Shown here in pieces: positions 3,201 through 21,730 of a stretch of 32,000 bases of DNA; position 1 is the first letter of the stretch; every line of letters begins with the position of its first letter. The position numbers were made by a program, and so were the translations under genes. This stretch comes from Xanthomonas campestris pv. campestris str. ATCC 33913 (GTDB lineage: Bacteria > Pseudomonadota > Gammaproteobacteria > Xanthomonadales > Xanthomonadaceae), in contig NC_003902.1 of the NCBI RefSeq assembly GCF_000007145.1, forward strand, positions 150,001 to 182,000, read 5' to 3'. Below the pieces are notes generated by a model that worked only from the letters and a program-made list of their open reading frames with translations, had not been told where the DNA came from and ran no database searches.

Positions 3201-3492
3201 CGTATCCACCAGTTACCGCGATGGCTACATCAACAACATCCTCGCCCAGGAAGACGTCTACAACCTCGATGGCCAGCGCCTGGCCACCGCCGATGTCACC
3301 GGCAAATACAGCGTGGAAAACGTCGATTTCAACATGTCCTACAAGATCAGCGACCACCTGTCGCTGACGTTTGAGGCCATCAACCTGCTCGATACCCCCG
3401 ACCGCCGCTACGTCGATTCCGCACTGGAACTGCCCGACAAATACACCGTCACCGGGCGCCAGTACTACGTCGGCGCGCGCTACAAGTTCTGA
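292..3492 (+). CDS. TonB-dependent receptor (1066 aa), probably for pectin/oligogalacturonide uptake given its neighbours
   Basis: ggagag RBS precedes the ATG at 292. The signal peptide reads LSVAIVLALHGVGAAAQ and a TonB-box-like DLDRVQVKA follows. The plug motif is EDIGKFPDLNLAESMQRIAGVSIDREGGEGKQISVRGLG. The C-terminal end is YYVGARYKF. High GC3 throughout. Confidence 0.92.
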   Translation: MQARSCRPAQEAGARLSAARLSVAIVLALHGVGAAAQTVGPPATPADAVDLDRVQVKATYRESLQQSLDAKRYSVEQVDAIYAEDIGKFPDLNLAESMQRIAGVSIDREGGEGKQISVRGLGSDFTRVRINGLEALATAGSGSDGVNRSRGFDFNTFASELFSRVTISKTQSAQTDEGSLGATVDLRGSRPFDFDGFEAAASTQYGYNDLSREQDPRFSGLISNIWADGRFGALMSVSYSERHLREEGYNPVRWEHGNYRNSNQSTATNNGTYGFCSPVGYNPQTPRNPLSNETRAGVGSQANQDRNNGWGSYGISATTCGTGIARPANTPENIQAYETATDAWIPRYPRYIRTDHEIKRLGVTGALQFKVSDDTLLNFDMLYSKLDKDQREDSVGANLHRTANFGGKTQIAVREAQVDEQNRLVYGVFDNVDYRTESSSIEESTEFKQFSLDLQHRFNDQVRMTALVGHSTSDYERPVFSLVSFDNTNLDGFVLDRRGGGDYPSMTFPFNAADANNWQWLGYGAVPVNSNGTARGTNISEVRLNPQSVSNTFDTAKVDLEFNISPTFTFRTGLAYKDYDMETSESRHVSYGRLAQGLPAGVGVGDLSTTLDGFGRSLNGNFPTSWVIPDFQKVADLLNINCNCDTGVPGGDYRLADVGHFGSSNNNFQVNEKSLGTYLQLDFNTDLWGRALRGNLGVRYVQTQIAASGYAPCTATASGAISPACESFFGVASATAAAGERLLVPTTVNHNYRDILPSLNLSWDVSDEVVLRFGAAKTMARPTLAYLSPSVSGGPTQFFDDGRFFSINLGNPKLDPFRSTNYDLSAEWYFREGSLLSAAVFYKDIDSYVQRTRVLTTWEAMGYSLDLLPAGFTPDTIFNVQSYFNTPGGPLKGFELTYQQAFDFLPGFWRNFGIQLNYTQVDSKINYLFSTAGNSNTSITTTTTERDLLNLSPQSYNATVYYDDGRFSARVSTSYRDGYINNILAQEDVYNLDGQRLATADVTGKYSVENVDFNMSYKISDHLSLTFEAINLLDTPDRRYVDSALELPDKYTVTGRQYYVGARYKF

Positions 3493-3505
3493 CAGGAGAA
3501 CCGCC

Positions 3506-4483
3506 ATGCAAGAACATCGCAGACGCGTGTTACGCAGCATCGCCGCCAGCGCCGTGTTGGCGATGAGCGCACTGGGCAGTACCGCGGCCTTCGCTGCAGA
3601 CCCGGTCTATACCGTGGCCAAGCAGGGCAACGCTGGTTACCGCACCGTGCAGGCCGCGGTGGACGCCGCCGTGCAGGGCGGCAAGCGCGCGCAGATCAGC
3701 GTCGGCGCGGGCGTGTATCAAGAGCTGCTGGTGGTGCCGGCCAACGCACCGGCATTGAAGATGGTTGGCGCTGGCACCACGCAAACCGTCATCACCTACG
3801 ACAACTACGCCGCGCGCATCAATCCGGCCACCGGTAAGGAGTACGGTACCTCCGGCTCGTCCAGCGTCATCATCGCCGGCAACGACTTCACCGCCGAGCA
3901 ACTGAGCTTCGGCAACCACGCGGGCCCGGTGGGCCAGGCGGTGGCGGTGCGCGTGGATGGCGACCGCGCGGCGTTCCGCAATGTGCGTTTCCTCGGCTAC
4001 CAAGACACGCTGTACCTGCGCGGCGCCAAGCTCTCGTATTTTCTCGACTGCTATGTCGAAGGCACCGTGGATTTCGTCTTCGGCGCCGGCACTGCCCTGT
4101 TCGAAAACGTGCAGCTGCATTCGCTGGGCGATGGCTATCTCACCGCTGCTTCCACGCCGCAGGAGAGCGCACGCGGCTTCGTGTTTCGCAATGCACGCAT
4201 CACCGCCGCCAGCGGTGTCTCGCGCGTGTTCCTGGGCCGGCCGTGGCGGCCGTACGCCAGCGTGAGTTTCATCACTAGCCAGCTCGGCGCGCACATCGTG
4301 CCCGAGGGCTGGAACAACTGGGGCAACGCGGCCAACGAGGCCACCGCCCGCTACAGCGAATACCAGAACACCGGCGCCGGGGCCAACCCGTCGCGCCGCG
4401 TGAAATGGTCACGCCAGCTCACCGCCGCACAGGCCGCTGCGCTGGACCGCTCCACCGTGCTGGGCTCCTGGAGGCCGTTCTGA
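3506..4483 (+). CDS. pme: Pectin methylesterase (pectinesterase, CE8), secreted
   Basis: ATG at 3506 follows a caggag RBS and sits 14 nt after the receptor stop. The signal peptide ends AFAADP. CE8 signature blocks are present: GVYQE, GQAVAVRV, GYQDTLY, VDFVFG, LGRPWRPYA. Confidence 0.9.
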   Translation: MQEHRRRVLRSIAASAVLAMSALGSTAAFAADPVYTVAKQGNAGYRTVQAAVDAAVQGGKRAQISVGAGVYQELLVVPANAPALKMVGAGTTQTVITYDNYAARINPATGKEYGTSGSSSVIIAGNDFTAEQLSFGNHAGPVGQAVAVRVDGDRAAFRNVRFLGYQDTLYLRGAKLSYFLDCYVEGTVDFVFGAGTALFENVQLHSLGDGYLTAASTPQESARGFVFRNARITAASGVSRVFLGRPWRPYASVSFITSQLGAHIVPEGWNNWGNAANEATARYSEYQNTGAGANPSRRVKWSRQLTAAQAAALDRSTVLGSWRPF

Positions 4484-5526
4484 TGAACCGTTCGCGCACG
4501 CTGCACCTGTCCACGCTCGCCTTCGCCGGCGCCCTGTTGCTCGCACCATTGGCGGCCATGGCCGACCACATCGCCGACAACATGCTGCTGCTGCAGACCG
4601 CCTCCGGTGGCTGGTCCAAGCAGTACAAGGGCGTGGCGGTGGACTACACCCGCACCTTCACCGCCGCCGAAATCGCCGAGCTCAAGCAACCCGGGCGCAA
4701 GGACGACGCCACCATCGACAACAAGGCGACCACGTATGAAATCACGTACCTGTCCACCGCCTTCAAGAACGAAAAGAACGCCAAGTACATTGCCGCCGCA
4801 CGTCGTGGCGTGGAGTACCTGCTCAAGGCGCAATACGCCAACGGCGGCTGGCCGCAGTTCTATCCGGACCTGTCGTCCTACCACCACCAGATCACCTACA
4901 ACGACGACGCCATGGTGCGCGTGCTCAACCTGTTGCAGGACATCGGCGAGGGCAAGGGCGACACCGGCGCGCAGCTGCGTGGCAGCCACGGCGCACGCGC
5001 GCAGCAGGCGGTGACCAAGGGCCTGGAATGCGTGCTCGCCACCCAGGTCAAGATCGGCGGCACGCTCACCATCTGGGGCGCGCAGTACGACGAAGTCACG
5101 CTCAAGCCGGCCAAGGCGCGCGCGTATGAGCTCGCTTCGCTGTCGTCCAGTGAGTCGGTCAGCATCGTGCGGTTCCTGATGCGCCAGCCCAGCCCCTCGG
5201 CCAAGATCAAGACCGCGGTGCAAGCGGCCGCCACCTGGTTCGACACCCATCGCATGCGCGACCTGGCCACCAAGAAGATCGACGACCCCACCCAGGAAAC
5301 CGGCAAGGATGTGATCCTCGTCGCGCAACCGGGTGCGTCATTATGGGCGCGCTTCTACGACCTGCAGAATCAACGTCCGCTGTATGCCAACCGCGAAGGC
5401 GTTGCATTGACCGACTACATGAAAGTGCCCAACGAGCGCCGCGTCGGCTACGCCTGGCATGGCACCTGGCCGGACAAGTTGTTGAAGGAGGACGTGCCCA
5501 AGTGGCGCGCCGCCAATGGCCTGTAA
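4483..5526 (+). CDS. Pectate lyase, PelA/Pel-15E (PL10-like) family, secreted
   Basis: The ATG overlaps the pme stop (TGATG at 4481-4485). The signal peptide is LAFAGALLLAPLAAMA. Blocks QTASGGWSKQY, TIDNKATTYEI, ANGGWPQFYP and ITYNDDAMV recall the PL10 pectate lyases. The family call is from memory of that family, not from a search. Confidence 0.8.
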   Translation: MNRSRTLHLSTLAFAGALLLAPLAAMADHIADNMLLLQTASGGWSKQYKGVAVDYTRTFTAAEIAELKQPGRKDDATIDNKATTYEITYLSTAFKNEKNAKYIAAARRGVEYLLKAQYANGGWPQFYPDLSSYHHQITYNDDAMVRVLNLLQDIGEGKGDTGAQLRGSHGARAQQAVTKGLECVLATQVKIGGTLTIWGAQYDEVTLKPAKARAYELASLSSSESVSIVRFLMRQPSPSAKIKTAVQAAATWFDTHRMRDLATKKIDDPTQETGKDVILVAQPGASLWARFYDLQNQRPLYANREGVALTDYMKVPNERRVGYAWHGTWPDKLLKEDVPKWRAANGL

Positions 5527-9514: not shown

Positions 9515-9529
9515 CCCGAGACACCAAGC

Positions 9530-9553
9530 CCTTCTCCCGCACGCGGGAGAAGG
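9530..9553 (+). terminator. Hairpin after the LamG-like gene
   Basis: ccttctccc-gcacgc-gggagaagg is a perfect 9-bp stem 16 nt after the stop. No T-tract follows. Confidence 0.4.
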
Positions 9554-9700
9554 TGTACGCAGGACGGATGAAGAAAAAGCCGATAAAGCCAGCGACCAGT
9601 CGCGCAAGCGCATTGACGCAACCCAAAAACTCGGCGAGGATCAAGGCACGCAGTATTAATGCAGCCGCAAAGCCACACATTTCTTCAGGGGGAAGAAACA

Positions 9701-9910
9701 ATGTTGAGCAAGGGATGGAGCATCGTGGCACTGACTGTGGCCGCATTGGGATTGTTTACCGCATCCGCGCAGGCGCGTGTTAGGGCCGCCGGCACGCACC
9801 ACACCACCAGTCATGGCGGCCACTACAGCGCAGGCCACGGCGCCTCGCACAAGGGTGGCAGCTACCGCAGCACAAGTACCAACAACCACTATCGGCGTCA
9901 CAAGTCCTAG
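9701..9910 (+). CDS. Small secreted His/Gly/Ser-rich protein (69 aa), cassette-like
   Basis: gggggaag RBS precedes the ATG at 9701. The signal peptide is MLSKGWSIVALTVAALGLFTASAQA. The mature part is GTHHTTSHGGHYSAGHGASHKGGSYRSTSTNNHYRRHKS. Confidence 0.6.
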   Translation: MLSKGWSIVALTVAALGLFTASAQARVRAAGTHHTTSHGGHYSAGHGASHKGGSYRSTSTNNHYRRHKS

Positions 9911-9951
9911 CAGGCCTCGAGCCAACGCCACTCGGAAGTGCAGCGTAATGC
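9905..9951 (+). other. Possible degenerate, short attC site
   Basis: TCCTAGC (overlapping the stop codon, as in the attC at 12378) ...GAGCCAACGCC... GTAATGC. It is only about 47 bp and its R' is imperfect. Confidence 0.3.
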
Positions 9952-9970
9952 AAGAACTAGGACGCGAAGA

Positions 9971-10354
9971 ATGCGCTATCAAAAACTCCTAAAGCTGCTG
10001 GCTGGCCTTGCCGGTGTCATGCTCGCGGCGACAGGCGCATTGCTGGTGGCGCTGGTTACAGCAGGCCAGGTACGTGAGGGACAGACGGGCGCATTGATCA
10101 GCGGCATCGGATTTCTGGTGATGGCCGCTCCTGCATTGGCAACGCCGTTTTCCTTACGCGCTGCCAAGCGATTGCTGATGCTGACACTGTGCTGCCTCGC
10201 GGCACTCGCGATTTGGCTTTCTTTCTGGCCGAAGGAGGGCGTGATGCCGACGCTCCAACTGCGAATCGCCGTCCTTGCGTTCCCGGCACTTCTGATACTC
10301 CGCATGCTGCTGGCTCGCCATCGCAAGGTGACGAAGCTTAGCGCTGACAGTTGA
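9971..10354 (+). CDS. Small integral membrane protein (about 127 aa, about 4 TM), unknown function
   Basis: From the ATG at 9971: MRYQKLLKLLAGLAGVMLAATGALLVALV..., followed by three more hydrophobic spans. The antisense ORF 9979-10359 is Arg/Ser-rich and looks non-coding. Confidence 0.55.
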   Translation: MRYQKLLKLLAGLAGVMLAATGALLVALVTAGQVREGQTGALISGIGFLVMAAPALATPFSLRAAKRLLMLTLCCLAALAIWLSFWPKEGVMPTLQLRIAVLAFPALLILRMLLARHRKVTKLSADS

Positions 10355-10401
10355 TGCAAGCAGAAGCCACGATGTGGTGCGACTTAATTCAAACGCTAGG
10401 A
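10336..10401 (+). other. attC recombination site (66 bp), slightly degenerate
   Basis: Sequence is GCTTAGC...AGAAGCCACGATGTGGTGCGACTTAATTCAAACGCTAGGA. The R'' TAGC and R' GCTA variants are mutually complementary. The L' block TTAATTCAAAC is shared with the other sites. Confidence 0.55.
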
Positions 10402-10407
10402 AAATCG

Positions 10408-10608
10408 ATGGATATGATTCGCGTCACCTCGTCGGCCATCAGCGCTATTGGCTACGACCCGGCTAGCATGCGTATGAAAATTCAATTCGTGCAGGGCCAC
10501 ACATACGACTTCTGCGGTGTGCCCTCGCACGTGTTTCAGGGGCTCCGCGATGCGGGGTCACAAGGCCGTTACTACAACGATCACATCCGTGACCGCTATC
10601 AGTGCTGA
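10408..10608 (+). CDS. KTSC-domain protein (66 aa)
   Basis: MDMIRVTSSAISAIGYDPASMRMKIQFVQGHTYDFCGVPSHVFQGLRDAGSQGRYYNDHIRDRYQC fits the KTSC pattern (V.S..I.A.GYD....L.I.F..G..Y.Y..VP..V...L....S.G.Y.N..IR..Y), recalled from memory. Confidence 0.7.
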   Translation: MDMIRVTSSAISAIGYDPASMRMKIQFVQGHTYDFCGVPSHVFQGLRDAGSQGRYYNDHIRDRYQC

Positions 10609-10630
10609 CTGCTTCGCTTTGGGGCGTGCC

Positions 10631-10688
10631 GTAGCAACTCATTCAAGCCGAACCCGCTTAGCGTGTTTTTTTAATTCAGGCGTTAGAA
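10631..10688 (+). other. attC recombination site (58 bp)
   Basis: GTAGCAACTCATTCAAGCCGAACCCGCTTAGCGTGTTTTTTTAATTCAGGCGTTAGAA. The R' core GTTAGAA lies 4 nt before the next ATG. Confidence 0.7.
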
Positions 10689-10691
10689 CTC

Positions 10692-10997
10692 ATGGCAAGC
10701 ATCGGAATTATCTTGCGAGCAAATGAAGAGTTGGATGAGTTGTCTGAGGACTGGGCGCCAGAGTCGCTTGGTTCAAGGGCAGATGTCCTGGCTGCAATCG
10801 GAAGTTGCATGCAAGCTGACGACACCAGCTTGGCACTAAATTTCCGAGTCGAGGAACCTGAGGACAGCGGAGAGCCGCGGACCATATCCGTATCAGGCGT
10901 CTGGGGCCAAAGAGAGTCTGCAATCTTGCATAGGTTGTGCAATCTGCTTGGTGCCCGATTCTACGATGCCGAGTCTGGGGATTTCATCGATTTATGA
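10692..10997 (+). CDS. Acidic 101-aa protein of unknown function (cassette ORF)
   Basis: The ORF fills the cassette between two attC sites and is very rich in Asp/Glu. No motif was recognised. Confidence 0.5.
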   Translation: MASIGIILRANEELDELSEDWAPESLGSRADVLAAIGSCMQADDTSLALNFRVEEPEDSGEPRTISVSGVWGQRESAILHRLCNLLGARFYDAESGDFIDL

Positions 10998-11056
10998 GTA
11001 CTAAAAATTGATTCGAGCCGAACCCGATCCCTTTTGGCTTAATTCAAACGTTAGAG
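10998..11056 (+). other. attC recombination site (59 bp)
   Basis: GTACTAAAAATTGATTCGAGCCGAACCCGATCCCTTTTGGCTTAATTCAAACGTTAGAG. Confidence 0.7.
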
Positions 11057-11113
11057 CGCACCAATCATTGTCGCCCCTAATTGAAGATTAGGCCCCAGAC
11101 AGAGGAATGATTC

Positions 11114-11809
11114 ATGGCAAGATGCACAGCACCAGTTCGTGGCCACAGTTCAGCAGCGGCAGCCGCCGCGTGTCCTGCTTGTCGCTACCGCAGCAGCTCT
11201 CGTTACAGCAGCGGAAATGGCGGTTCCTACTACCCATCAACGAGTAGCCCTAGCTATACCAGCTCAAGCAGCGGCAGTGGGCGCAAGAGCTCAAAGCCGC
11301 GCTGGTCAAAGACAGGATCGACTATTCTCTACACACCGGCCGAGGTGCAATCACTTGCACCGGTCCGCGAGGCTGTGGAGGTCCAGGTCGCGCGGCACCC
11401 AGACAAACGAGATGTATTTCTTTGCCACGCCTGGGATGATCGTCAGGGAGCTGCGAAAGAACTGCATGACCTTCTTGAAGCTGCAGGGGTAAAAGTCTGG
11501 TTCAGTGAGAAGGACCTTGGACTTGGCGTCCCTATGATGCGCGCAATTGATAAGGGCCTAGCCAACTCCAAAGTCGGCCTCGTGCTTGTGACACCTGCAC
11601 TTTTGGCACGCCTTCCAAAAGAAAGTGTCGCAGACAAGGAGCTCTCAACACTGCTTGCGGGAAATCGACTTGTGCCTATCGTTCACAAGACAACATACGA
11701 GGCGCTTCGCGAGATAAGTCCAATGCTCGCTTCAAGAACGGGTCTTGACACCGCAGAGGACTCGATGTCTGAAGTAGCTGCAAAAATCGCTGAGCTAGTT
11801 GATTTCTAG
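11114..11809 (+). CDS. TIR-domain protein (231 aa) with a Ser/Tyr/Gly-rich low-complexity N-terminus
   Basis: gagga RBS sits 7 nt before the ATG. From about aa 99 the sequence is TIR-like: RDVFLCHAWDDRQGAAKELHDLLEAAGVKVWFSEKDLGLGVPMMRAIDKGLANSKVGLVLVTPALLARL...ADKELSTLL. That is the DxFxSHA-type start, the W.D/E block, and a Glu in the position of the NADase catalytic residue. Confidence 0.8.
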   Translation: MARCTAPVRGHSSAAAAAACPACRYRSSSRYSSGNGGSYYPSTSSPSYTSSSSGSGRKSSKPRWSKTGSTILYTPAEVQSLAPVREAVEVQVARHPDKRDVFLCHAWDDRQGAAKELHDLLEAAGVKVWFSEKDLGLGVPMMRAIDKGLANSKVGLVLVTPALLARLPKESVADKELSTLLAGNRLVPIVHKTTYEALREISPMLASRTGLDTAEDSMSEVAAKIAELVDF

Positions 11810-11823
11810 GGGGGGGGGGGGGG
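11809..11823 (+). repeat. Homopolymeric G15 tract
   Basis: 15 consecutive G. The first is the G of the TIR gene TAG stop. The tract ends 4 nt before the attC R'' box. Confidence 0.95.
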
Positions 11824-11827
11824 CGCG

Positions 11828-11888
11828 CTCTAAAAAATTCTTGCAAGCCGACGTCGCTTCGCGGCGCGGCCTAACTTAGGCGTTAGGT
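11828..11888 (+). other. attC recombination site (61 bp), the best-preserved copy
   Basis: CTCTAAAAAATTCTTGCAAGCCGACGTCGCTTCGCGGCGCGGCCTAACTTAGGCGTTAGGT. It is almost colinear with the aadA-type attC of class 1 integrons as I recall it (GTCTAACAATTCGTTCAAGCCGACGCCGCTTCGCGGCGCGGCTTAACTCAAGCGTTAGAT). Confidence 0.85.
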
Positions 11889-11903
11889 GTCAAGGAGATA
11901 TAC

Positions 11904-12383
11904 ATGGATTATTTAATTGAATCAAGGCCGATGCAGAAGTGGGATGTCCGGTTCTGTGATTTGGCCAGATACATATCAGCCTGGTCTAAAGACCCGAACG
12001 CTAAGGTTGGAGCAGTTCTCTTCTCGAAGAAGGGCGGAAATGTGTCAATTGGATATAACGGATTCCCTATCGGTGTTGAGGACTCCGCAGAGCGGTTGAC
12101 TGACAAAGATGTAAAGTTAGAATTAGTCGTACACGCAGAAGTCAACGCCATTATCGCAGCAGGTGTTCGCGCAGAGGGTTCAACGATTTATGTATGGGGA
12201 AAACCAATTTGCGCGCGGTGCGCCGGTCCAATCATTCAGGCGGGAATAAAAAGAGTAGTTGCCCTTGCGCCTGGTGAGTCAGAATCTCATTGGGATAAAA
12301 GTGGAAAGACTGCTCGTGACATGTTCATAGAGGCAGGCATTACAGTTGATTTTTATACGGCTAACGAGCCAGTGACTACTTAG
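11904..12383 (+). CDS. dCMP/cytidine deaminase-family zinc enzyme (159 aa, ComEB/dCMP-deaminase-like)
   Basis: aaggag RBS at 11892. Motifs are VGAVLFSKKGGNVSIGYNGFP, HAEVNAI (the H-A-E zinc/catalytic motif) and PICARCAGPIIQAGIKRVV (the PCxxC motif). Confidence 0.85.
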   Translation: MDYLIESRPMQKWDVRFCDLARYISAWSKDPNAKVGAVLFSKKGGNVSIGYNGFPIGVEDSAERLTDKDVKLELVVHAEVNAIIAAGVRAEGSTIYVWGKPICARCAGPIIQAGIKRVVALAPGESESHWDKSGKTARDMFIEAGITVDFYTANEPVTT

Positions 12384-12436
12384 CAATTCATATAGATCGA
12401 CACCGCTCGCGGAATGAGTTAATTCAGGCGTTATGC
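12378..12436 (+). other. attC recombination site (59 bp)
   Basis: ACTTAGCAATTCATATAGATCGACACCGCTCGCGGAATGAGTTAATTCAGGCGTTATGC. R'' overlaps the deaminase stop codon. Confidence 0.7.
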
Positions 12437-12500
12437 CCATAGAGCCGCCGTCCACTTCAGCAGGAGCATGCATGAACATCTACGCTGCAATAGATAAACT

Positions 12501-13720
12501 TAAGGATGGTCTGATCAACGGCGTCGGAGGATGAGCCCAACTACATCGGCCAGGCTGACGGCGCTCAGATCCTCGATTTTTTTGCCGTTTCCGGCGCGTT
12601 TGCAGGGTGTTGCCTGCGTTACAGGCGCACGCTCCCCATAGCAGGCAATAACTGCTTTCGCTTCATCCACAGGTTTGACAGCGCAAACAGCGTCAGCACC
12701 TGCGCGGTGTTCTTCGCCAGGCCGCGATAGCGGACCTTGGTGTAACCGAACTGGCGCTTGATCACCCGGAACGGATGCTCCACCTTCGCACGCACGCTGG
12801 CCTTGAAGTGTTCCCAGCGCTGTTCCCGAGCACGCTCCCGCTTGTTGCCGATGGCTTGAAGCACCGAACGCTTGGCAGCAATGAAAAATGCAGCCTCGCA
12901 GTCCTGCAGTTCTTCGCGCTTATCCGCACCGGTGTAGCCGCTGTCGCCAAACACGCTGTCTTCTTTGCCATGCAGCAATGCGTGCGTCACCGTGACATCG
13001 GCGACGTTGGCGGCTGTGCAATGGACGTGGTGCACCAACCCGGAAAATTCATCCACGCCGATGTGCGCCTTCATCCCGAAATACCACTGATTGCCCTTCT
13101 TGGTCTGATGCATCTCAGGGTCGCGCGCATGGTCGGCGTTCTTGGTCGAACTGGGCGCCGCGATCAGCGTCGCATCGACGATCGTGCCCGACCGCAGGCT
13201 CTGGCCCTTGCGCGCCAGATGCGCGTTGACCGCTTCCAGCATCCGCGCGGCAAGGCCATGGGTCTCCAGCAGGCGGCGAAAGTTGAGAATCGTGGTCTCG
13301 TCCGGAACGTTGTCCAAGCCACCGAGCTGGGCAAAGCGCCGCAAGGTCGGGATCTCGTGCAGTGCTTCTTCCATCGCCGGATCGCTCAACGCATACCACT
13401 GCTGCAGCAGATGAATCCGCAACATCGTCGCCAGTGCGTACGGCTGCCGACCTGGCCGCCCCGAGACCGGATAGTGCGGCGCGACCAGCCCGAGCAGTTG
13501 CTGCCACGGGACGACCTGCTCCATCTCGGCCAGAAAGATCTCCCGGCGCGTCTGCTTGCGCTTGCCCAGGCCCTCAGCGTCACCGAACGTCAGTTGCATG
13601 GATCACCCCTCAACATCAGGCGGGTAGTGTCGCGTATCTGTGGTGCGTTGTTCAGAGGTTCCTTAAATCCAGCATTCCGCGGTCCGTCGCGGATGCACAA
13701 GTTTTCTTAGACACCCTTCC
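12501..13720 (-). mobile_element. IS5-family insertion sequence (IS5 group), about 1.2 kb
   Basis: It contains the transposase at 12619-13599. The end at 13701-13720 reads (reverse complement) GGAAGGGTGTCTAAGAAAAC. The other end, around 12501, is TTAAGGATGGTCTGATCAAC, an imperfect match. The exact left boundary and target duplication are not resolved. Confidence 0.75.
12619..13599 (-). CDS. IS5-family DDE transposase (326 aa)
   Basis: It is colinear with E. coli IS5 transposase as I recall it: QLTFGD...KRKQTRREIFLAEMEQVVPW, TMLRIHLLQQWY.LSD.AMEEAL, DPEMHQTKKGNQWYFGMKAHIGVD, VEHPFRVIKRQFGY.KVRYRGL.KN. Confidence 0.93.
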   Translation of the reverse strand: MQLTFGDAEGLGKRKQTRREIFLAEMEQVVPWQQLLGLVAPHYPVSGRPGRQPYALATMLRIHLLQQWYALSDPAMEEALHEIPTLRRFAQLGGLDNVPDETTILNFRRLLETHGLAARMLEAVNAHLARKGQSLRSGTIVDATLIAAPSSTKNADHARDPEMHQTKKGNQWYFGMKAHIGVDEFSGLVHHVHCTAANVADVTVTHALLHGKEDSVFGDSGYTGADKREELQDCEAAFFIAAKRSVLQAIGNKRERAREQRWEHFKASVRAKVEHPFRVIKRQFGYTKVRYRGLAKNTAQVLTLFALSNLWMKRKQLLPAMGSVRL

Positions 13721-13997
13721 TTCCAATGTACAAGAGCAACTCATAAGCGCTGTATATCTTGGTCGCGAGCACATCCATTCCAGCAGCCTGCGCGACGACT
13801 TGGAGGTCAATCGCTCGTACACCGACCACCTCAGCAAGGATGAATACGCAGAAATTCTCCACGAGAAGGGGGAAAACTTGATCATCTATCTCGACAAGCT
13901 TGAGTCGTGTGCAACTGCCGCTGATTTCGACCTAAACAGGCTCTAAGTCGAGCGGGCCAGGTTCACTTTAGGGCGATCTGACCCCTAAGGAAACAGC

Positions 13998-15391
13998 GGG
14001 GTAAGGTTTAACTAATAAGTCAATCTGACTCTGAGGTTTCCCCACATTTCCTCCTGGCAAATCAATCACTTGCGACGTAATTGCCTGGAAGAAAGTGCGC
14101 GCATGGCGCAATCTTCAAGGTGACTAAGCCAGAGAAGGTTGACGACCATGCGCGCCAGCGAAGTATTGCAGAAGTGCCTGCCCAACTCACTGTCCGGGAT
14201 GCATGCGTTGCGCGAACGCGCGTTGCTGCATGCGGTCGAGGCGTTGTTGCACGGACGCAGGCTGACACTGATGGACATCGCACGTTCGTGGCCGAGCGCA
14301 CTGCGGGTGCGCGCGCCGCTCAAGGCAGTTGATCGCCTGTTGAGTAATCGCAATTTGCAGGTCGAGCGATCAGTGATCGACCACGAGATGGCGCACTGGC
14401 TGCTGCGCGGCGCGCAGCCGGTAATCGTCATCGACTGGAGCGATCTGAAGCCAGACAAATCGTGGTGTCTGCTGCGCGCAGCGGTGCCGGTGGGCGGCCG
14501 CACGCTTACCTTGCTGGACATGGTAGTGCCAGGAAAGCAGCAGGGATCGCCTGGTGCAGAAAGACGCTTCTTGCAACAACTGAGGGCACTGGTTCCGGAC
14601 GATGTTCGCCCGATCCTGGTCACTGACGCCGGCTTCCGGACACCGTGGTTCCGCGCTGTATCGGCCATGGGCTGGTGTTGGGTTGGGCGACTGCGCGGGC
14701 GCACGCAAGTCAAGCCGCAGGACGTGCGGGATGAAGCAGATCAGTGGATCGACAGCCGGAAACTGCATGTGTTGGCGTCCAATCGTGCATGCGAGTTACC
14801 GCCGATGCAGGCCAATCGCAGCGATCCACTCGATTGCAGGTTGGTGATTTACGCCAAGGCACGGCAAGGGCGCAAACAGTGCAATCGCCGCTCACCCGCC
14901 AAAGTCTCGCGTGCGTCATCGAGTCTGAAGGCCGCAGCGCGCGAGCGCGAGCCTTGGCTCATCGTTGCATCCCCGCAGCTGCAGGCGCCCAGCGCAAAGC
15001 AGTTGGTCAATGTGTACGCACGACGGATGCAGATCGAGCTTGCATTTCGCGATCTGAAATCACATCGCTACGGCCAGGCGCTGGAAGACAGTTTGACCCG
15101 ACGCGGCGAGCGACTGCAGATCCTGCTGCTGATCAATACGTTGGCTGCATTCGCCAGCTGGTTGGCGGGGCTGGGATGCGAAGCGACCGGTATCGCCCAG
15201 TGGCTGTCTCCTCGCAACAGCACACGCAAGCTTTACTCCACGCTACGCATCGGCCGAGAAGCGCTGGTCAGGCAGTGGCCGATGGAACCCGTCTCACGGT
15301 GGATAGGGCGCTTGCGCGCACTGCCTGCGGCAGTGCGCGAGCAGATGACGCTTACGGTGTAAAACGTGGGGATACCTTAGAACCTGACCCC
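13998..15391 (+). mobile_element. IS4-family insertion sequence, about 1.39 kb
   Basis: Terminal blocks on the left are GGGGTAAGGTT (13998-14008) plus CTGAGGTTTCCCCACATTTCC (14031-14051). The reverse complement of 15361-15391 is GGGGTCAGGTTCTAAGGTATCCCCACGTTTT. The left end carries 22 extra bp between the two blocks. No flanking direct repeat was seen. Confidence 0.75.
14148..15362 (+). CDS. IS4-family DDE transposase (about 404 aa)
   Basis: gagaagg RBS, then ATG 14148 (the ORF is open from TTG 14139). The DDE_Tnp_1-like layout shows VIVIDWSDL (first Asp region), ILVTDAGF (second Asp) and YARRMQIELAFRDLKS (the Y-R-E-K region). Confidence 0.88.
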   Translation: MRASEVLQKCLPNSLSGMHALRERALLHAVEALLHGRRLTLMDIARSWPSALRVRAPLKAVDRLLSNRNLQVERSVIDHEMAHWLLRGAQPVIVIDWSDLKPDKSWCLLRAAVPVGGRTLTLLDMVVPGKQQGSPGAERRFLQQLRALVPDDVRPILVTDAGFRTPWFRAVSAMGWCWVGRLRGRTQVKPQDVRDEADQWIDSRKLHVLASNRACELPPMQANRSDPLDCRLVIYAKARQGRKQCNRRSPAKVSRASSSLKAAAREREPWLIVASPQLQAPSAKQLVNVYARRMQIELAFRDLKSHRYGQALEDSLTRRGERLQILLLINTLAAFASWLAGLGCEATGIAQWLSPRNSTRKLYSTLRIGREALVRQWPMEPVSRWIGRLRALPAAVREQMTLTV

Positions 15392-15668: not shown

Positions 15669-18600
15669 ATGGAAGTTCTGAAGCCCCTGCGGCTGCGTCG
15701 TTACGCTTGCGCATTGTTGCTAAGCACTGTCTGCGGAGTCTGTGCGCAGGAGGTCAAGCAAGAATGGACGGTTTCTGCCAAGCACCCAGAAATTCCGACG
15801 ACAACCGTTGGCGTTTTTGACAATCAACATCGTGCAATTGAGGCCATGGCGCAGATCGCTGGTCCTAGCGATGCAGAGTATGCGTATCGTTTAGCTACGC
15901 ACGTAAAAGAAACAAAAACGAACGAAGACCAGACAGTTACGCTCACATACTGGCTTGGTAACGATCAACCATCCGATCCCGAATGGACTTACTCTGCACT
16001 AGGTAGCTCCTACGCAACTGAGGTCGAGATGGCTGCAGGTATTGAGTCCTTCTACACTCAATTTAACGAATGTGGCAAGGTTTCTCTGAAGCCAGCAACC
16101 GAATGGACGCCATATTCGGCGGAATTCGAGGGTCGTATTGATTCAAAACGTTTTGATGTTATAGCGAACGTGCTTTATTACGATGGAACGTGCTTACCCG
16201 TAGAGCACACTGGGTTCGGTACTCGCCAGCGCAGGCTATTCTGTCCTTTATATACGACCTGGAACGATGATTATCAAGCCTGTGTAAATCTGGAAATATT
16301 TGCTTACTTGACCGGGCCTTCTTTAGAGGATACGTGTTCGGTTGGCAATCCGTGCGATGTAAAGACCGGTGAAAAATCACAACCTGAACAGGATTTCGAT
16401 CTTGGATGGATACGTCTCGTTCGAACGTTCCGGTCCTCGCAGGTTGGACGGCGATCGAACCTTGGGGCGGGCTGGTTCAACTCACATGAAATCAGTGTTT
16501 CTTCAAATGGCTCTCACGCAATACTTGCTGAAGGAAACGGGCTTCAACGTAATTTCGAATCGGTCGGAAATTCTTTTATTGCTTCTGATGGCTCTGGGGA
16601 TCGGCTTGAGAAAATAGCCAACGGGTGGAGACTTTTTAGGTCGGAAACGGTTTCGGAATTTGATGCTACAGGCGCGTTGGGCTTGGTGTCGAAGGACGAC
16701 GGTAGTTATCTTCGATACGCGTACGATCGATCCTCGAGGTTGGAATCGATTACGCACTCTACCGGACGCAAGTTGGTTTTTAACTACGCTGATGGCTCCC
16801 GTTATGCCCAGCTTATTCGAGTTGCGCTGGACGGAGTCGCGTTGGCTACTTACGCTTACTCTGACACTTTCCCGGACAGCGCGGTGCTGGAGAGCGTGAC
16901 CCATGCGGACGGCCGGGTCAGGTCGTATCTGTATGAAGACGAGGATTTTTACCGCTTCCTGACCGGTGTGGTCGCGGAGGATGGAATGCGCTACAGCACA
17001 TTCGCCTACAACGCTACGGGGCGTGTTGTGTCAAGCCAACATCACGATGGCGCAGACGGTGTGACGCTTGATTACACCGATGGCGCCACCGTTGTAACCG
17101 ACGCGTTGGGGGAACAGACGACATATACGTTGAGCCAGCGTTCCGCAGGTCCTAGAAAAATAGATGACGTCACCGACAGCGCAGGTACTCTCAGCAGCGA
17201 CTATCTGGACGCAAGTGTTGATTTTCGTCGGCGCTTGAGAGCTTCTACCGATCGTGCCGGGGTTATCACGCAACACGCCTATGCCGAACTTGCGGATGCT
17301 GGCGTGCCAGTCAATGTGCACACGGTCACCGAGGCGGCTGGTTTACCCAGTCAGCGAATCACAAGTACGCGCACCGCTGTCGACAGCAATCGATTGATGT
17401 CAGTTCAATCAAGTGACAAGCAAGTAGGCTATGTCCGAAATGCGCGACTGCAGCCGCAGCAAGTCATCACGACCGACGTCGCAAGTGGTCAGACCAGGGT
17501 TCTCAGTATGAACTACTGCGAGCCAGCCGATGTGGCTGCCGGTAGCGACTGTCCCGTACTTGGCTTACTGAAGTCCATCGATGGCCCGCGCACGGATATC
17601 GACGACCGTACGACCTACAACTACTACCCCATCGATGCCGCTGGGTGCCAGACCGGCACCGGACCGTGCCTGTACCGTAAGGGTGACCTCAAGCAAACTA
17701 TCAACGCCCGCGGCCAGATCCGGGAAAATCTGAGCTATGACGCAGCAGGCCGCGTTCTTTCTGCCGTTGATGAGAACCGGGTACTAACCGATTACAGCTA
17801 CCATCCGCGTGGTTGGTTGGCATCGACCACCGTGCATGGCGCGACTTCCGCGCAGAATCGCGTGACCACGTTCGAGTACTGGCCCACCGGCTTGGTCAAA
17901 CGCATCACCCAGCCCGATGGCAGCTACGCCACGTTTGTCTACGACCAGGCCCAACGCCTCACCGATGTCACCGATACGCTGGGCAATACCCTCCATTACG
18001 TGCTTGATAAGGCTGGCAATCGTCTGGAAGAGCAGACCAAGGACGCGCAGGGTGCGCTCAAGCGCAGTTTGAGCCGTATTTACAATCAATTGGGGCAACT
18101 GGAAACGCAGGCGGACGCAGCCGCAAATCCTACCGACTACGCCTACGATGCAAACGGCAACCTGCGCTTGATCACCGACGCATTCGGTCGTAGAACCCTG
18201 CAAGAGCACGACCCACTCGGTCGGCTTGCGCGCACGTTGCAGGATGTCGATGGCATCAAGGCCGAAACCAACGTGGGTTACGACACGCAGGATCGCCCGC
18301 TGCAGGTCAAGGACCCGAAACGTCTGGACACGCGCTACACGTACAACGGGTTAGGCGACATCCTGAAACTGACCAGCCCGGATACCGGCGCCACCAGTTA
18401 TACCTACGACAGCGCCGGTAACCGCGCCACGCAGACCGATGCGCGCGGCGTCATCTCCACCTATGGCTACGACGCGCTCAACCGGGTTTTGAGCATCAGC
18501 TACCCGACCGCCGCCTTCAATGTCAGCTATACCTATGACGTCACGCAGAACGTGTGCGCCAGCGGTGAGACGTTCACCGTCGGGCGCCTGGCCAAGCTCC

Positions 18601-20174
18601 AGGATGGCAGCGGTACCACCCAATACTGCTACAACCGCTTCGGCGAGGTGGTGCGCAAAGTGCAGACGGTCAACGGCAAGGTGTTGGTGCTGCGCTACGA
18701 CTACACAACCGGCGGCCGCCTGCGGTCGATGGTCTACCCGGACGGCACCACGGTCGACTACGTCCGCAACGCACAAGGGCAGACGACCGAAGTTGGGGTG
18801 ACTGCCTCGGCCGGCAGCCGCCAGCGTCTGCTGAGCGGAGCGACCTACTATCCGTTCGGCCCATCCGCCGGCTGGACCTACGGCAACGGCCGCAAGCTGG
18901 CGCGCACGTACGATCAAGACTACCGGCCGCAGAGCATCCAGGACACCCGCGCTGGAGGGCTGGAAATCGGCTTCGGCTTCAATTCCGTTGGCGACCTCAC
19001 TGCCCTGACCCCGGCCGGCAACCCAACACCAGACCTTCGTCTGAACTACGACGCGCTCGGTCGACTCACTGCGCTCAAGGATGGCACTACCGAGGCGGTG
19101 ATCGACGGCTATAGCTACGATGCCACCGGCAATCGTCTGAGTGCCAAGGTCGGCGCCGCCACGCAGGCCTACACTTATCCGACGACCAACCACCGTCTGA
19201 GCGCAGTCGCAGGCGTGGCACGCACCTACGACAAGATGGGCAACACCCTCACCATCGGCGGCAAGGCACGCGAATACCTGTACGACACCACCGGTCGCAT
19301 GACCCAGGTCAAGCGCGCAGGCGCCGCGGTCATGAATTACCGCTACAACGGCCGAGGCCAGCAGGTACGCCGCTATCTGGGCACCACCAACACCTATACG
19401 CTTTACGACGAGGCCGGCCACTGGCTCGGTGACTACGACACCAACGGCGCACCTAAGCAGCAAGCGATCTGGCTGGACGACCTGCCGGTTGGGCTGCTGG
19501 CAAACGGCGGTCAGTTGCACTACATCGAACCCGACCACCTCGGCAGCCCTCGCGTTGTCGTCGATGCCGCCCGCGACGTTGCCGTGTGGAGCTGGAGCCT
19601 GAAAGGCGAAGCCTTCGGTAATACCGCACCCAACCAGGATCCGGATGGGGATGGCATCGCAATGGTGTTCGACATGCGGTTCCCTGGGCAGCGCTTTGAT
19701 GCAGCGAGCGGATTCAATCAGAACTACTTTCGTGATTATGATGCCGCTACTGGTCGGTATGGGCAGAGTGATCCGATTGGGTTGGCGGGAGGAGTGTCTA
19801 CCTATGATTATTCAAATGCTAATCCCTTAACCACCTCTGACGTATTTGGCCTAACAGGAAATCCTTTGTCTGGCTACAATCCGGCTCTAGGTCCAATAAT
19901 TATTAAAACCCCTACCTCCAAAATAGGTTTTTTAGATAAATTATTTTCGTCATGGATTGTAGGGAAAGTCACGGGGGGTATAAGTACTGTTAATAAATAC
20001 GGGCAAATTGTGCCAAAGCCGACTACTTTTCTGGGTAGGGCGAATATCTTCGTATGGGCAATGTCTCCAACGGAAATGTCATGTTCTGAACTGGATTGCG
20101 GTAAAAATAGTTTACCTGATTATTTTGAAAGGCAGCATCCAATCGAGAGTTGCGAGTCTGGAAATGAATATTGA
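15669..20174 (+). CDS. rhs: Rhs/YD-repeat polymorphic toxin (1501 aa) with an N-terminal Sec-type signal peptide and a variable C-terminal toxin domain
   Basis: The signal is LRLRRYACALLLSTVCGVCAQE. Many YD repeats are present (YAYDRSSRL, YTYDSAGNR, YGYDALNRV, YAYDANGNL, YSYDATGNRL). The Rhs core end is FPGQRFDAASGFNQNYFRDYDAATGRYGQSDPIGLAGGVSTYDYSNANPLTTSDVFGL. An AT-rich 106-aa tail follows at 19854-20171. Confidence 0.93.
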   Translation: MEVLKPLRLRRYACALLLSTVCGVCAQEVKQEWTVSAKHPEIPTTTVGVFDNQHRAIEAMAQIAGPSDAEYAYRLATHVKETKTNEDQTVTLTYWLGNDQPSDPEWTYSALGSSYATEVEMAAGIESFYTQFNECGKVSLKPATEWTPYSAEFEGRIDSKRFDVIANVLYYDGTCLPVEHTGFGTRQRRLFCPLYTTWNDDYQACVNLEIFAYLTGPSLEDTCSVGNPCDVKTGEKSQPEQDFDLGWIRLVRTFRSSQVGRRSNLGAGWFNSHEISVSSNGSHAILAEGNGLQRNFESVGNSFIASDGSGDRLEKIANGWRLFRSETVSEFDATGALGLVSKDDGSYLRYAYDRSSRLESITHSTGRKLVFNYADGSRYAQLIRVALDGVALATYAYSDTFPDSAVLESVTHADGRVRSYLYEDEDFYRFLTGVVAEDGMRYSTFAYNATGRVVSSQHHDGADGVTLDYTDGATVVTDALGEQTTYTLSQRSAGPRKIDDVTDSAGTLSSDYLDASVDFRRRLRASTDRAGVITQHAYAELADAGVPVNVHTVTEAAGLPSQRITSTRTAVDSNRLMSVQSSDKQVGYVRNARLQPQQVITTDVASGQTRVLSMNYCEPADVAAGSDCPVLGLLKSIDGPRTDIDDRTTYNYYPIDAAGCQTGTGPCLYRKGDLKQTINARGQIRENLSYDAAGRVLSAVDENRVLTDYSYHPRGWLASTTVHGATSAQNRVTTFEYWPTGLVKRITQPDGSYATFVYDQAQRLTDVTDTLGNTLHYVLDKAGNRLEEQTKDAQGALKRSLSRIYNQLGQLETQADAAANPTDYAYDANGNLRLITDAFGRRTLQEHDPLGRLARTLQDVDGIKAETNVGYDTQDRPLQVKDPKRLDTRYTYNGLGDILKLTSPDTGATSYTYDSAGNRATQTDARGVISTYGYDALNRVLSISYPTAAFNVSYTYDVTQNVCASGETFTVGRLAKLQDGSGTTQYCYNRFGEVVRKVQTVNGKVLVLRYDYTTGGRLRSMVYPDGTTVDYVRNAQGQTTEVGVTASAGSRQRLLSGATYYPFGPSAGWTYGNGRKLARTYDQDYRPQSIQDTRAGGLEIGFGFNSVGDLTALTPAGNPTPDLRLNYDALGRLTALKDGTTEAVIDGYSYDATGNRLSAKVGAATQAYTYPTTNHRLSAVAGVARTYDKMGNTLTIGGKAREYLYDTTGRMTQVKRAGAAVMNYRYNGRGQQVRRYLGTTNTYTLYDEAGHWLGDYDTNGAPKQQAIWLDDLPVGLLANGGQLHYIEPDHLGSPRVVVDAARDVAVWSWSLKGEAFGNTAPNQDPDGDGIAMVFDMRFPGQRFDAASGFNQNYFRDYDAATGRYGQSDPIGLAGGVSTYDYSNANPLTTSDVFGLTGNPLSGYNPALGPIIIKTPTSKIGFLDKLFSSWIVGKVTGGISTVNKYGQIVPKPTTFLGRANIFVWAMSPTEMSCSELDCGKNSLPDYFERQHPIESCESGNEY
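18856..19781 (+). repeat. Main-gene copy of the rhs core-end repeat (partners at 20377-21300 and, partially, 22128-22377)
   Basis: Direct nucleotide comparison by eye. The 3' 600 bp has only scattered mismatches; the 5' about 350 bp is more diverged. No identity was computed. Confidence 0.9.
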
Positions 20175-20349
20175 GAGCAAGCGAAAAATCGCAGTCGTAA
20201 TCTACTCCTTGCTACTTTTCCTGGGGGTTGTTGGAGCATGGGGTGCTTTTAATGGGCCGAGCTGGTGGACCTTGCCTCTTGCGCTAATCTGGCTGTGGAT
20301 AGCTAATTTTTTGACTAAGTGTGTTGTCGCTATTATTCCAGGGGATTAA
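20164..20349 (+). CDS. Candidate Rhs immunity protein (61 aa, 2 TM)
   Basis: The ATG at 20164 overlaps the rhs stop by 11 nt. Sequence is MNIESKRKIAVVIYSLLLFLGVVGAWGAFNGPSWWTLPLALIWLWIANFLTKCVVAIIPGD. It is AT-rich like the toxin tail, and position is the only functional evidence. Confidence 0.6.
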   Translation: MNIESKRKIAVVIYSLLLFLGVVGAWGAFNGPSWWTLPLALIWLWIANFLTKCVVAIIPGD

Positions 20350-20479
20350 AAGTTTGAATATGCTGACTTGTCGCATTCAGCCCATCCTCCAGGTGGACCT
20401 ACGGCAACGGCCGCAAACTGGCGCGTATGTACGATCTTGACTACCACCGCGCATCATCCAAGACACCCGCGCAGGCGGC

Positions 20480-21730
20480 TTGGAAATCGGCTTCGGCTTC
20501 GATGCTGTTGGCGACCTCACCGCTCTGACCCCGGCCGGCAACCCGACACCGGAGTTGCGACTGGATTACGACGCCCTCGGTCGGCTCACAGCGCTGAAAG
20601 ACGGCGCCGCCAATACCGTGATTGGCGGCTACAGCTACGATGTCACCGGCAATCGCCTGAGTGCCAAGGTCGGTGGCGTCATGCAGACCTACACATATCC
20701 AACCACCAACCATCGTCTGAGTGCGGTGGCAGGCGTGGCGCGCACCTATGACAAGATGGGCAACACCCTCACCATCGGCGGCAAGGCACGCGAATACCTG
20801 TACGACACCACCGGTCGCATGACCCAGGTCAAGCGCGCAGGCGCCGCGGTCATGAAATACCGCTACAACGGCCGAGGCGAGCAGGTACGCCGCTATCTGG
20901 GCACCACCAACACCTATACGCTTTACGACGAGGCCGGCCACTGGCTCGGTGACTACGACACCAACGGCGCACCCAAGCAGCAAGCAATCTGGCTGGATGA
21001 CCTGCCGGTAGGCCTGCTGGCCAACGGCGGTCAACTGCACTACATCGAACCCGACCACCTCGGCAGCCCTCGCGTTGTCGTCGATGCCGCCCGCGACGTT
21101 GCCGTGTGGAGCTGGAGCCTGAAAGGCGAAGCCTTTGGCAACACTGCGCCCAACCAGGATCCGGATGGGGATGGCACCGCGATGGTGTTCGACATGCGGT
21201 TCCCAGGGCAGCGCTTTGACGCAGCGAGCGGATTCAATCAGAACTACTTCCGGGATTACGATGCGGCGACTGGTCGGTATGGGCAGAGTGATCCGATTGG
21301 CTTAAGAGCAGGAATTGGTACATACGTTTATGTTGAAGGAAGCCCAGTTAGCCACGTAGATCCTTCCGGTCTATGTGAAGACAAACCAAAAGAAGACTGT
21401 CTTGATGCTGCTTTAAGTACCTACTCTATGGAAGAGTCAGTTAATTCGATTGTGGGATTTGGCGCCGGTTCCGCAATCTTTGGTGGGTCGGCGCAAGTAG
21501 TCAATAAATCAGCAATTAAGCCTCGCGGTGGTGTAGCAGGTGGAGGTCCCAGCGGGCGTTACACGAGCTACTCCAGACGTTACCTGGGAAATGGAGTTGG
21601 GAGAACCATTGGTAGACTCGGAATAGGAACAGTGATTAAGAGGGCAGGTATTATCGGGGCAGGGATTGGTGCAATAACAGAGCACGTTGAAGCGCTGAAT
21701 GCTTTTATAAAATGTCGAGGTGCTCAGTGA
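20480..21730 (+). CDS. Orphan rhs core-end plus alternative C-terminal toxin (416-aa ORF with no obvious native start)
   Basis: Nucleotide homology to the main rhs runs 20377-21300, matching 18856-19781. The ORF opens only at TTG 20480, where the main gene has CTG (Leu). The canonical end is GSPVSHVDPSGL. A different 118-aa Gly-rich tail follows at 21374-21727. Confidence 0.65.
   Translation: MEIGFGFDAVGDLTALTPAGNPTPELRLDYDALGRLTALKDGAANTVIGGYSYDVTGNRLSAKVGGVMQTYTYPTTNHRLSAVAGVARTYDKMGNTLTIGGKAREYLYDTTGRMTQVKRAGAAVMKYRYNGRGEQVRRYLGTTNTYTLYDEAGHWLGDYDTNGAPKQQAIWLDDLPVGLLANGGQLHYIEPDHLGSPRVVVDAARDVAVWSWSLKGEAFGNTAPNQDPDGDGTAMVFDMRFPGQRFDAASGFNQNYFRDYDAATGRYGQSDPIGLRAGIGTYVYVEGSPVSHVDPSGLCEDKPKEDCLDAALSTYSMEESVNSIVGFGAGSAIFGGSAQVVNKSAIKPRGGVAGGGPSGRYTSYSRRYLGNGVGRTIGRLGIGTVIKRAGIIGAGIGAITEHVEALNAFIKCRGAQ

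Follow-up and report, generated by a model that had tools for sequence, protein, structure and literature searches.

Cassette arrays without an integrase gene, termed CALINs (attC clusters that lack an integron-integrase), have already been published next to lamG in Xanthomonas campestris (Colombi et al. 2025, Microb Genom, PMC12444791). Here we describe an array at this position in X. campestris pv. campestris (Xcc) strain ATCC 33913. It directly follows the gene for a LamG-like protein of 1295 amino acids (aa; stop at 9514) in a stretch of 32,000 nucleotides (NC_003902.1, positions 150,001 to 182,000), which we call the window. The array agrees with the published lamG CALINs in genus and species, in its lamG neighbour, in having no integrase gene (intI) nearby and in the retention of an intI beside ilvD, and X. 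hortorum, which is named in that study, bears an orthologous array with common cassettes. The array in the window is, however, a more eroded version that is not described there. We consider it probable, at roughly 85%, that it is a relic CALIN at a conserved lamG position, formed by an integron integrase (IntI) acting in trans and since decayed and fixed in Xcc.

Three further systems are close enough for comparison. The ilvD-linked chromosomal integron of Xanthomonas carries attC sites of the same family as the window; both X. campestris pv. asclepiadis (L120) and X. melonis (L088) combine intI with arrays of the 60-nt family consensus (compared loci are given by L numbers where they need to be told apart). 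Such ilvD-type arrays adjoin intI, have near-perfect attC sites (50–95 bits with the model described below) and vary in content among strains, whereas the array in the window is without intI, its sites are eroded and its content is fixed. The attC of the aadA cassette of class 1 integrons, the 59-base element, also shares its sequence family with the window sites. It is known to be functional and folds well (dG -14.4 kcal/mol, z-score -3.4), while the fold of site E in the window does not exceed chance (z -0.9). An array and a defence-type gene are likewise joined in sedentary chromosomal integrons of Vibrio with anti-phage cassettes (bioRxiv 10.1101/2024.07.02.601686), but in the window this gene, encoding a TIR-domain protein, stands without ThsA, the array is decayed and has no integrase, and the defence role is predicted only. 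The literature already covers integrons in Xanthomonas, CALINs as such, lamG as their position and the attC family of aadA type; only mildly new are the eroded, fixed state of the array, its being unreported by IntegronFinder, and the TIR cassette.

attC sites of an integron-linked family

To identify attC sites independently of the window, we used a covariance model, R1, built solely from attC sites of intI-linked arrays in other genomes. The 19 training sites, with the 60-nt consensus GCCTAACAATTCATTCAAGCCGACGCCGCTTCGCGGCGCGGCTTAATTCAGGCGTTAGGC, fit the canonical attC structure (95% pairing, compensatory changes in the terminal stem). A search of all 32 kb with filters off yielded exactly five matches (E 1e-10 to 3e-5; next best 11.8 bits), sites B to F in Table 1. 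All are on the + strand, each comes after a short + strand open reading frame (ORF), and together they are confined to 2.1 kb. The 16-mer TTAATTCARRCGTTAG, allowing up to three mismatches, occurred five times in the window against 0.2 expected, again only on the + strand (starts at 10384, 10671, 11039, 11871 and 12419; span 10384–12434). Every site lies at or just past a + strand stop codon, and the next ORF starts 6–60 nt after the end of the core. Sites B–F are homologous to attC sites of arrays with an adjacent intI. Rfam at gathering thresholds gave no match in the window. Match counts to the 60-nt consensus proved too noisy for significance (shuffled sequences reached 42/60), and we relied on the E-values of the model.

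A first-pass annotation, made from the letters alone, had placed six attC sites here (9905, 10336, 10631, 10998, 11828 and 12378), each directly after a short + strand ORF, and had named as its possible undoing that attC models would score none of them. R1 scores the last five, and the stop-codon positions agree with the proposed placement. The site at 9905 (site A), described as weak from the start, is not significant alone: it scores 6.6 bits, and even a search limited to 151 nt leaves it at E 0.1. X. vasicola has a 72-bit attC behind lamG with which site A can be aligned at every position, and in X. hortorum the site is 97% identical; on its position, hairpin and orthology we regard site A as a probable attC. 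The proposed spacings of 287, 368, 832 and 548 bp were reproduced, with the first one corrected from 450 to about 439 bp. The terminal GTTRRRY core said to be shared by the sites is strictly kept in site E, while A, B, C, D and F deviate from it.

Where else this family occurs was examined with a scan for the exact motif over one genome per species. Among the matches listed, same-strand arrays with 300–1500 bp spacing were found in Lysobacterales and Methylophilaceae, and single matches fell in unrelated taxa at an estimated frequency of about chance level. The Methylophilaceae arrays filled with the 60-nt attC family are those of L014, L089 and L038 (Methylotenera, Methylobacillus). With IntI1 as tblastn query (100% identical to the Citrobacter class 1 integrase of L020), IntI was detected beside motif arrays, in the expected divergent orientation, in at least nine loci (L120, L088, L104, L035, L038, L107, L076, L053 and L108). 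In the class 1 integron of L020, the attC following an AadA-family gene reached 82.6 bits with R1 and 55/60 positions of the consensus. Site E matches the consensus at 52/60 and this aadA attC at 49/60 positions, within the same R1 family, and the likeness of the 11828 site to the aadA attC had thus been recognised correctly in the first pass. A derivation of the aadA cassette's attC from a Xanthomonas/Methylophilaceae-type source would fit these sequences.

No integrase accompanies the sites. Among the large ORFs of the window, Pfam revealed no Phage_integrase domain; tblastn with IntI1 gave no match at E 1e-3, and with the Xanthomonas IntI of L120 the best E was 1.8 over all 32 kb. At the lamG junction, comparison across five taxa gave nothing convincing in the way of an attI-like or half-site remnant. 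The locus thus does not have the parts of a complete integron (intI, attI and a Pc promoter by the first cassette). A CALIN is defined by two or more attC sites with under 4 kb between them, and by no integrase gene within 4 kb and no integrase pseudogene within 10 kb; here five sites lie within 2.1 kb, and no intI is near. The reading of the locus as an integrase-less, CALIN-like array, with no integrase in view, had been reached from the raw letters and is now supported by R1, by the tblastn and domain searches, by the intI-linked members of the family and by the published lamG CALINs.

Erosion of the sites and constancy of the array

The attC sites of the array are eroded. Real family sites outside the R1 training set score about 50–95 bits, compared to 28–48 bits for sites B–F. 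Canonical pairing, with G-T wobbles counted, amounts to 76% in the window sites versus 95% in the reference set, and pairing in the R-box stem to 66%. The bottom strands of B–F fold with dG -2.6 to -10.3 kcal/mol (z -0.9 to +1.0), no better than shuffled sequence, whereas the functional class 1 attC sites of aacA4, dfrA1 and aadA reach -14 to -25 kcal/mol (z -2.4 to -4.7). Sites B–F lack a stable bottom-strand hairpin, and A alone among the six keeps one. Sites A and B have ACT and GCT in place of the GTT triplet, which the other four retain. Site E illustrates the change: its X. hortorum ortholog is near-consensus (79.2 bits), while the Xcc copy has acquired many substitutions and a poly-G run. 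Within this site (11865–11892), the L' arm is mutated to CCTAAC and pairs with the downstream R' core GTTAGG; the small hairpin that arises locally is in competition with normal attC folding. Poor unconstrained folding had at one stage been considered as evidence against attC identity; this argument was dropped after real sites had been folded for comparison, and the folding was read as erosion.

Within Xcc, the array is constant. In five strains (L004, L007, L008, L009 and L011) the R1 scores of sites B–F are the same or within 0.3 bits, and every Xcc strain examined carries the same array, though their genomes contain between 14 and 22 attC sites in total. Between species it differs. X. hortorum (L106) has an orthologous array directly after lamG with the genes orf83 (cassette 1), orf138 (cassette 2), KTSC (cassette 3) and TIR (cassette 5) in common, and its homology to Xcc breaks at sites C and E, at the latter just past GTTAGG. 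In L141, whose LamG protein is 92% identical, only the first three cassettes are in common, and X. vasicola (L133) and L135 show one good attC each after lamG. In Stenotrophomonas, no attC was found after lamG. Because X. hortorum, X. vasicola, L135 and L141 all have attC sites or cassettes there, the lamG position is old and was once active. The alignment of related strains, which the first-pass annotation had proposed as a check for variable cassette content between fixed flanks, therefore gave a divided answer: content is invariant within Xcc, and the cassettes after lamG differ between species. The last lamG codons of X. vasicola (L133, 13830–13860) hold GTATTAGGCCGCA, which resembles the consensus R' core with its flank, GCGTTAGGCCGCA, and could be an old cassette junction or a chance likeness.

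Strain 8004 (CP000050.1, ~145–170 kb) and many other Xcc assemblies carry the same layout as the window. In 8004, an intI rated functional lies beside ilvD at 413.8 kb, and the genome has 22 attC sites (Colombi et al. 2025, PMC12444791, Table S2); this intI is thus about 250 kb away from the array. The IntegronFinder census of that study gives 0 CALINs for 8004 and three other genomes, all four of which we show to carry the array; for the genomes carrying the array it gives total attC counts of 22, 22, 15 and 14 and a functional IntI (PMC12444791). We attribute the zero counts to the erosion of the sites, by which the array seems to fall below the IntegronFinder threshold. For the generic model, this lack of a CALIN call comes close to the outcome that the first-pass annotation had named as its refutation.

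We propose that six, perhaps seven, co-oriented cassettes without recognisable promoters of their own would have been inserted and exchanged after lamG, the agent being an integron integrase that worked in trans on Xanthomonas/aadA-family attC sites. Point mutation would then have let these sites decay in the Xcc lineage, with loss of hairpins and of two GTT triplets. The array would thereby have become a fixed, inert piece of the chromosome that the cell's IntI beside ilvD probably no longer rearranges; to judge from the sequences, it is probably no longer recombinogenic. The array may first have arisen by insertion at a secondary site, through the loss of a second integrase or from an old rearrangement (options in Cury et al. 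2016).

Alternative readings of the locus

Several points weigh against a decayed and fixed array. The functional attC sites of aacA4 and dfrA1 score just 30 and 17 bits with R1; the model covers a single family, so its low scores express divergence, not function, and the argument for erosion is carried by the structural measures. Folding by free energy, in turn, leaves out protein-assisted folding. Four sites keep their GTT, and recombination at attC is tolerant of considerable sequence change. An identical TIR or LamG protein was the criterion by which the compared strains were found, which biases them to close relatives, and the invariance among the Xcc strains may reflect merely short divergence times. 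The IntegronFinder negative is a published table of counts without scores, and that its attC totals describe the ilvD array is inferred, since no CALIN was called and the table gives totals per genome. The array could also be a live CALIN from which a functional IntI still excises or reshuffles cassettes in trans, for example to the ilvD integron. The GTT of sites C, D, E and F would suit this, as would the 48 bits and 52/60 positions of site E, the IntI rated functional in the same genome, the fact that R1 gives no higher scores to functional attC sites from other families, and the variation of cassette content among lineages. We nevertheless hold continued activity to be unlikely: sites B–F fold no better than shuffled sequence, R-box pairing has dropped to 66%, the array is the same across the Xcc strains examined despite attC totals of 14–22, and IntegronFinder called no CALIN in these genomes.

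The two insertion sequence (IS) elements at the right side of the array might instead point to a recent fragment of the ilvD integron that was moved by IS-mediated rearrangement within Xcc, and Cury et al. (2016) tie IS elements to the origin of CALINs in IntI-encoding genomes. This history is highly improbable: the IS insertions are strain-specific, with L008 and L011 lacking them, and the attC sites and common cassettes that X. hortorum, X. vasicola, L135 and L141 have behind lamG mark the position as old. Next to no weight falls on the idea that the sites are a repetitive extragenic palindromic (REP)-like or other dispersed intergenic element between ordinary small genes. Weak hairpins and short intergenic repeats are typical of REP elements too, and the locus is unflagged by IntegronFinder; but elsewhere the motif forms same-strand, cassette-spaced arrays, often directly beside intI, it serves an aadA cassette of a class 1 integron as attC, it is limited in the window to 2.1 kb of one strand, and homology between species breaks at the sites. 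The dispersed REP-type repeat that the first-pass annotation had itself held out as a counter-explanation is therefore not what the copies in other genomes look like.

Cassette genes, flanks and biological meaning

The features of the array and its borders are compiled in Table 1; all dN/dS values (ratio of non-synonymous to synonymous substitution rates) refer to Xcc versus X. hortorum. A value for a lamG fragment of 263 nt was discarded, the fragment being out of frame.

Table 1. Features of the cassette array and its borders (window positions; folding values of sites refer to the bottom strand, dG in kcal/mol).
Feature	Position	Strand	Details
GC-rich hairpin, 14 nt past lamG stop	9528..9556	+	RNA fold -22.5 kcal/mol, z -2.9
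Cassette 1 ORF, small His/Gly-rich, hydrophobic N-terminus	9659..9910	+	83 aa; 69 aa from ATG 9701
Site A, probable, strongly diverged attC	9904..9962	+	R1 6.6 bits; core ACTAGGA (no GTT); hairpin kept; dG -11.8, z -2.1
Cassette 2 ORF, hydrophobic	9971..10354	+	127-138 aa; dN/dS 0.25
Site B, eroded attC	10338..10405	+	R1 30.1 bits, E 1e-5; core GCTAGGA (GTT lost); dG -6.0, z -0.8
Cassette 3 ORF, KTSC-domain protein	10408..10608	+	Pfam KTSC E 1.5e-22; dN/dS 0.51
Site C, eroded attC	10625..10692	+	R1 42.7 bits; core GTTAGAA; R'' arm and terminal stem broken; dG -6.2, z -0.3
Cassette 4 ORF, acidic	10692..10997	+	101 aa; absent from X. hortorum and L141
Site D, eroded attC	10995..11060	+	R1 38.7 bits; core GTTAGAG; terminal stem lost; dG -2.6, z +1.0
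Cassette 5 ORF, stand-alone TIR-domain protein, ThsB-like	11114..11809	+	231 aa; Pfam TIR_2
Poly-G tract, TIR stop codon to site E	11810..11823	+	14 G
Site E, best-preserved attC, aadA-type	11824..11892	+	R1 48.3 bits, E 1.4e-10; core GTTAGGT (11882); dG -10.3, z -0.9
Cassette 6 ORF, small dCMP/cytidine deaminase-like	11904..12383	+	159 aa; Pfam dCMP_cyt_deam_1 E 1.2e-16
Site F, eroded attC	12374..12440	+	R1 28.2 bits; core GTTATGC; dG -3.9, z +0.7
Last ORF, 103 aa when intact, split by IS	12472..13946	+	pieces 12472-12503 and 13667-13946
IS5-family IS, CTTAA repeat flanks	12504..13661	-	transposase 12619-13599; Pfam DDE_Tnp_1, DUF772; terminal inverted repeats
IS4-family IS, approximate right limit of array region	14032..15390	+	transposase 14139-15362; Pfam DDE_Tnp_1

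The orf83 product is 95% identical to its X. hortorum counterpart at the amino acid level (dN/dS 0.11), and the gene is also present in L135 and L141. Pfam and PADLOC scans gave no family match for it, nor for orf138, whose product is probably a membrane protein, as its hydrophobic sequence suggests. The KTSC protein of cassette 3 comprises 66 aa if read from an ATG and 85 aa from a TTG at 10351. Cassette 5 encodes a TIR protein that matches the PADLOC ThsB model PDLC00424 over its full length (403 bits) and has a dN/dS of 0.12. Behind its stop codon, the length of the poly-G tract ranges from 9 to 14 G between Xcc strains, and X. hortorum has no such tract; the run of L011 is directly followed by non-ACGT characters, apparently an assembly gap. 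The deaminase of cassette 6 gave weak and partial matches only to models of anti-phage dCTP deaminases. With dN/dS values of 0.11–0.25, a minimum of three cassette genes (orf83, orf138 and the TIR gene) are still maintained by purifying selection.

The TIR protein belongs to a very large and highly conserved family of Gamma- and Betaproteobacteria, with about 8000 matches of 74–91% identity in Xanthomonas, Rhodanobacter, Gallionellales, a Pseudomonas plasmid and Aeromonas, and it is solitary at every locus viewed (L137, L138, L139 and L140). One homologue (OZ176268.1, L138) occupies the moron position between Q and holin of a lambdoid prophage, the Aeromonas homologue sits in a prophage-like island, and two attC-like sites precede that of Rhodanobacter. 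Among the window proteins scanned with Pfam and PADLOC there was no ThsA/SIR2/SLOG-type family, and the called genes around the Aeromonas, prophage and Rhodanobacter homologues likewise contained no ThsA/SIR2/SLOG-type Pfam domain. Of the two Thoeris components, the window thus has ThsB (TIR) and no adjacent ThsA.

Transcription of the cassettes could come from upstream. The array has no promoter-like site at its head; in the whole region there are two, which is about chance level. Read-through from lamG into the array must pass the strong hairpin behind the lamG stop codon, which is without a U-tract, was not flagged as a terminator and is conserved in X. hortorum. The first-pass annotation had suggested that such read-through might be the only promoter of the array.

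On the right, the IS4-family element was delimited by comparison with L008 and L011, its right end being approximate. The first-pass annotation had the array cut by IS elements. The IS5-family element indeed splits the last ORF, which is intact in L002, L004, L007, L008, L011 and L012, and the IS4-family element follows. A longer array was not truncated by them, because strains without the insertions have no further attC to the right: none was found there in any Xcc strain examined, and behind the 103-aa ORF L008 gave only an attC-like relic of 5.9 bits in place of a seventh site. In L008, which is without the IS4 insertion of the window, a stretch of some 320 bp on the right side of the array (11750–12070) encodes the start of another ORF, which an IS and an assembly gap cut short; judged by eye, this ORF resembles a YiiX/papain-like amidase, and the stretch is absent from the window.

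On the left, lamG is preceded by genes for a TonB-dependent receptor, a pectinesterase and a pectate lyase, and the first-pass observation that the array directly follows lamG holds. A second TonB-dependent receptor, the pectinesterase and the pectate lyase, encoded upstream of lamG at 292–5526, are absent in L141, X. vasicola and L135 (compared regions: L141 5856–9001, L133 5991–10001, L135 7102–10001), and in X. vasicola an IS takes their place; these pectin genes next to lamG are therefore accessory themselves. Across 9.5–22.5 kb of the window the GC content drops from about 0.65 to about 0.50. This low-GC island contains the small + strand cassette ORFs, the two IS elements and an Rhs locus, with glgE and then treS as its right-hand neighbours. 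The Rhs locus (15669–21730) encodes a protein of 1501 aa followed by Rhs C-terminal fragments. Among Xcc strains, the length of the Rhs protein (1414, 1501 or 1513 aa) and the nearby IS content vary, and in L007 no Rhs gene was called from the array to glgE.

The locus provides an example of what becomes of an array after its recombination sites die: the genes are kept, the sites eroded and the content frozen, while a live integron persists elsewhere in the genome. It was recognised as a cassette array by reading the raw sequence, in a genome where the standard tool reports none. The ThsB-like TIR gene and the small deaminase gene, present in every Xcc strain examined, are candidates for phage defence or competition. 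More speculatively, and with well below even probability, there may have been a domestication of cassettes, in which the gene set became fixed in the pathovar once the attC sites had decayed and selection kept the ThsB-like TIR gene. The family of this gene circulates as integron cassette, prophage moron and plasmid-borne gene, at 74–91% identity. If domestication took place, the TIR gene could act against phages or competitors as a module of one gene, with no need of ThsA, and since standard finders miss such arrays, the share of integrons in the fixed gene content of bacteria would be underestimated.

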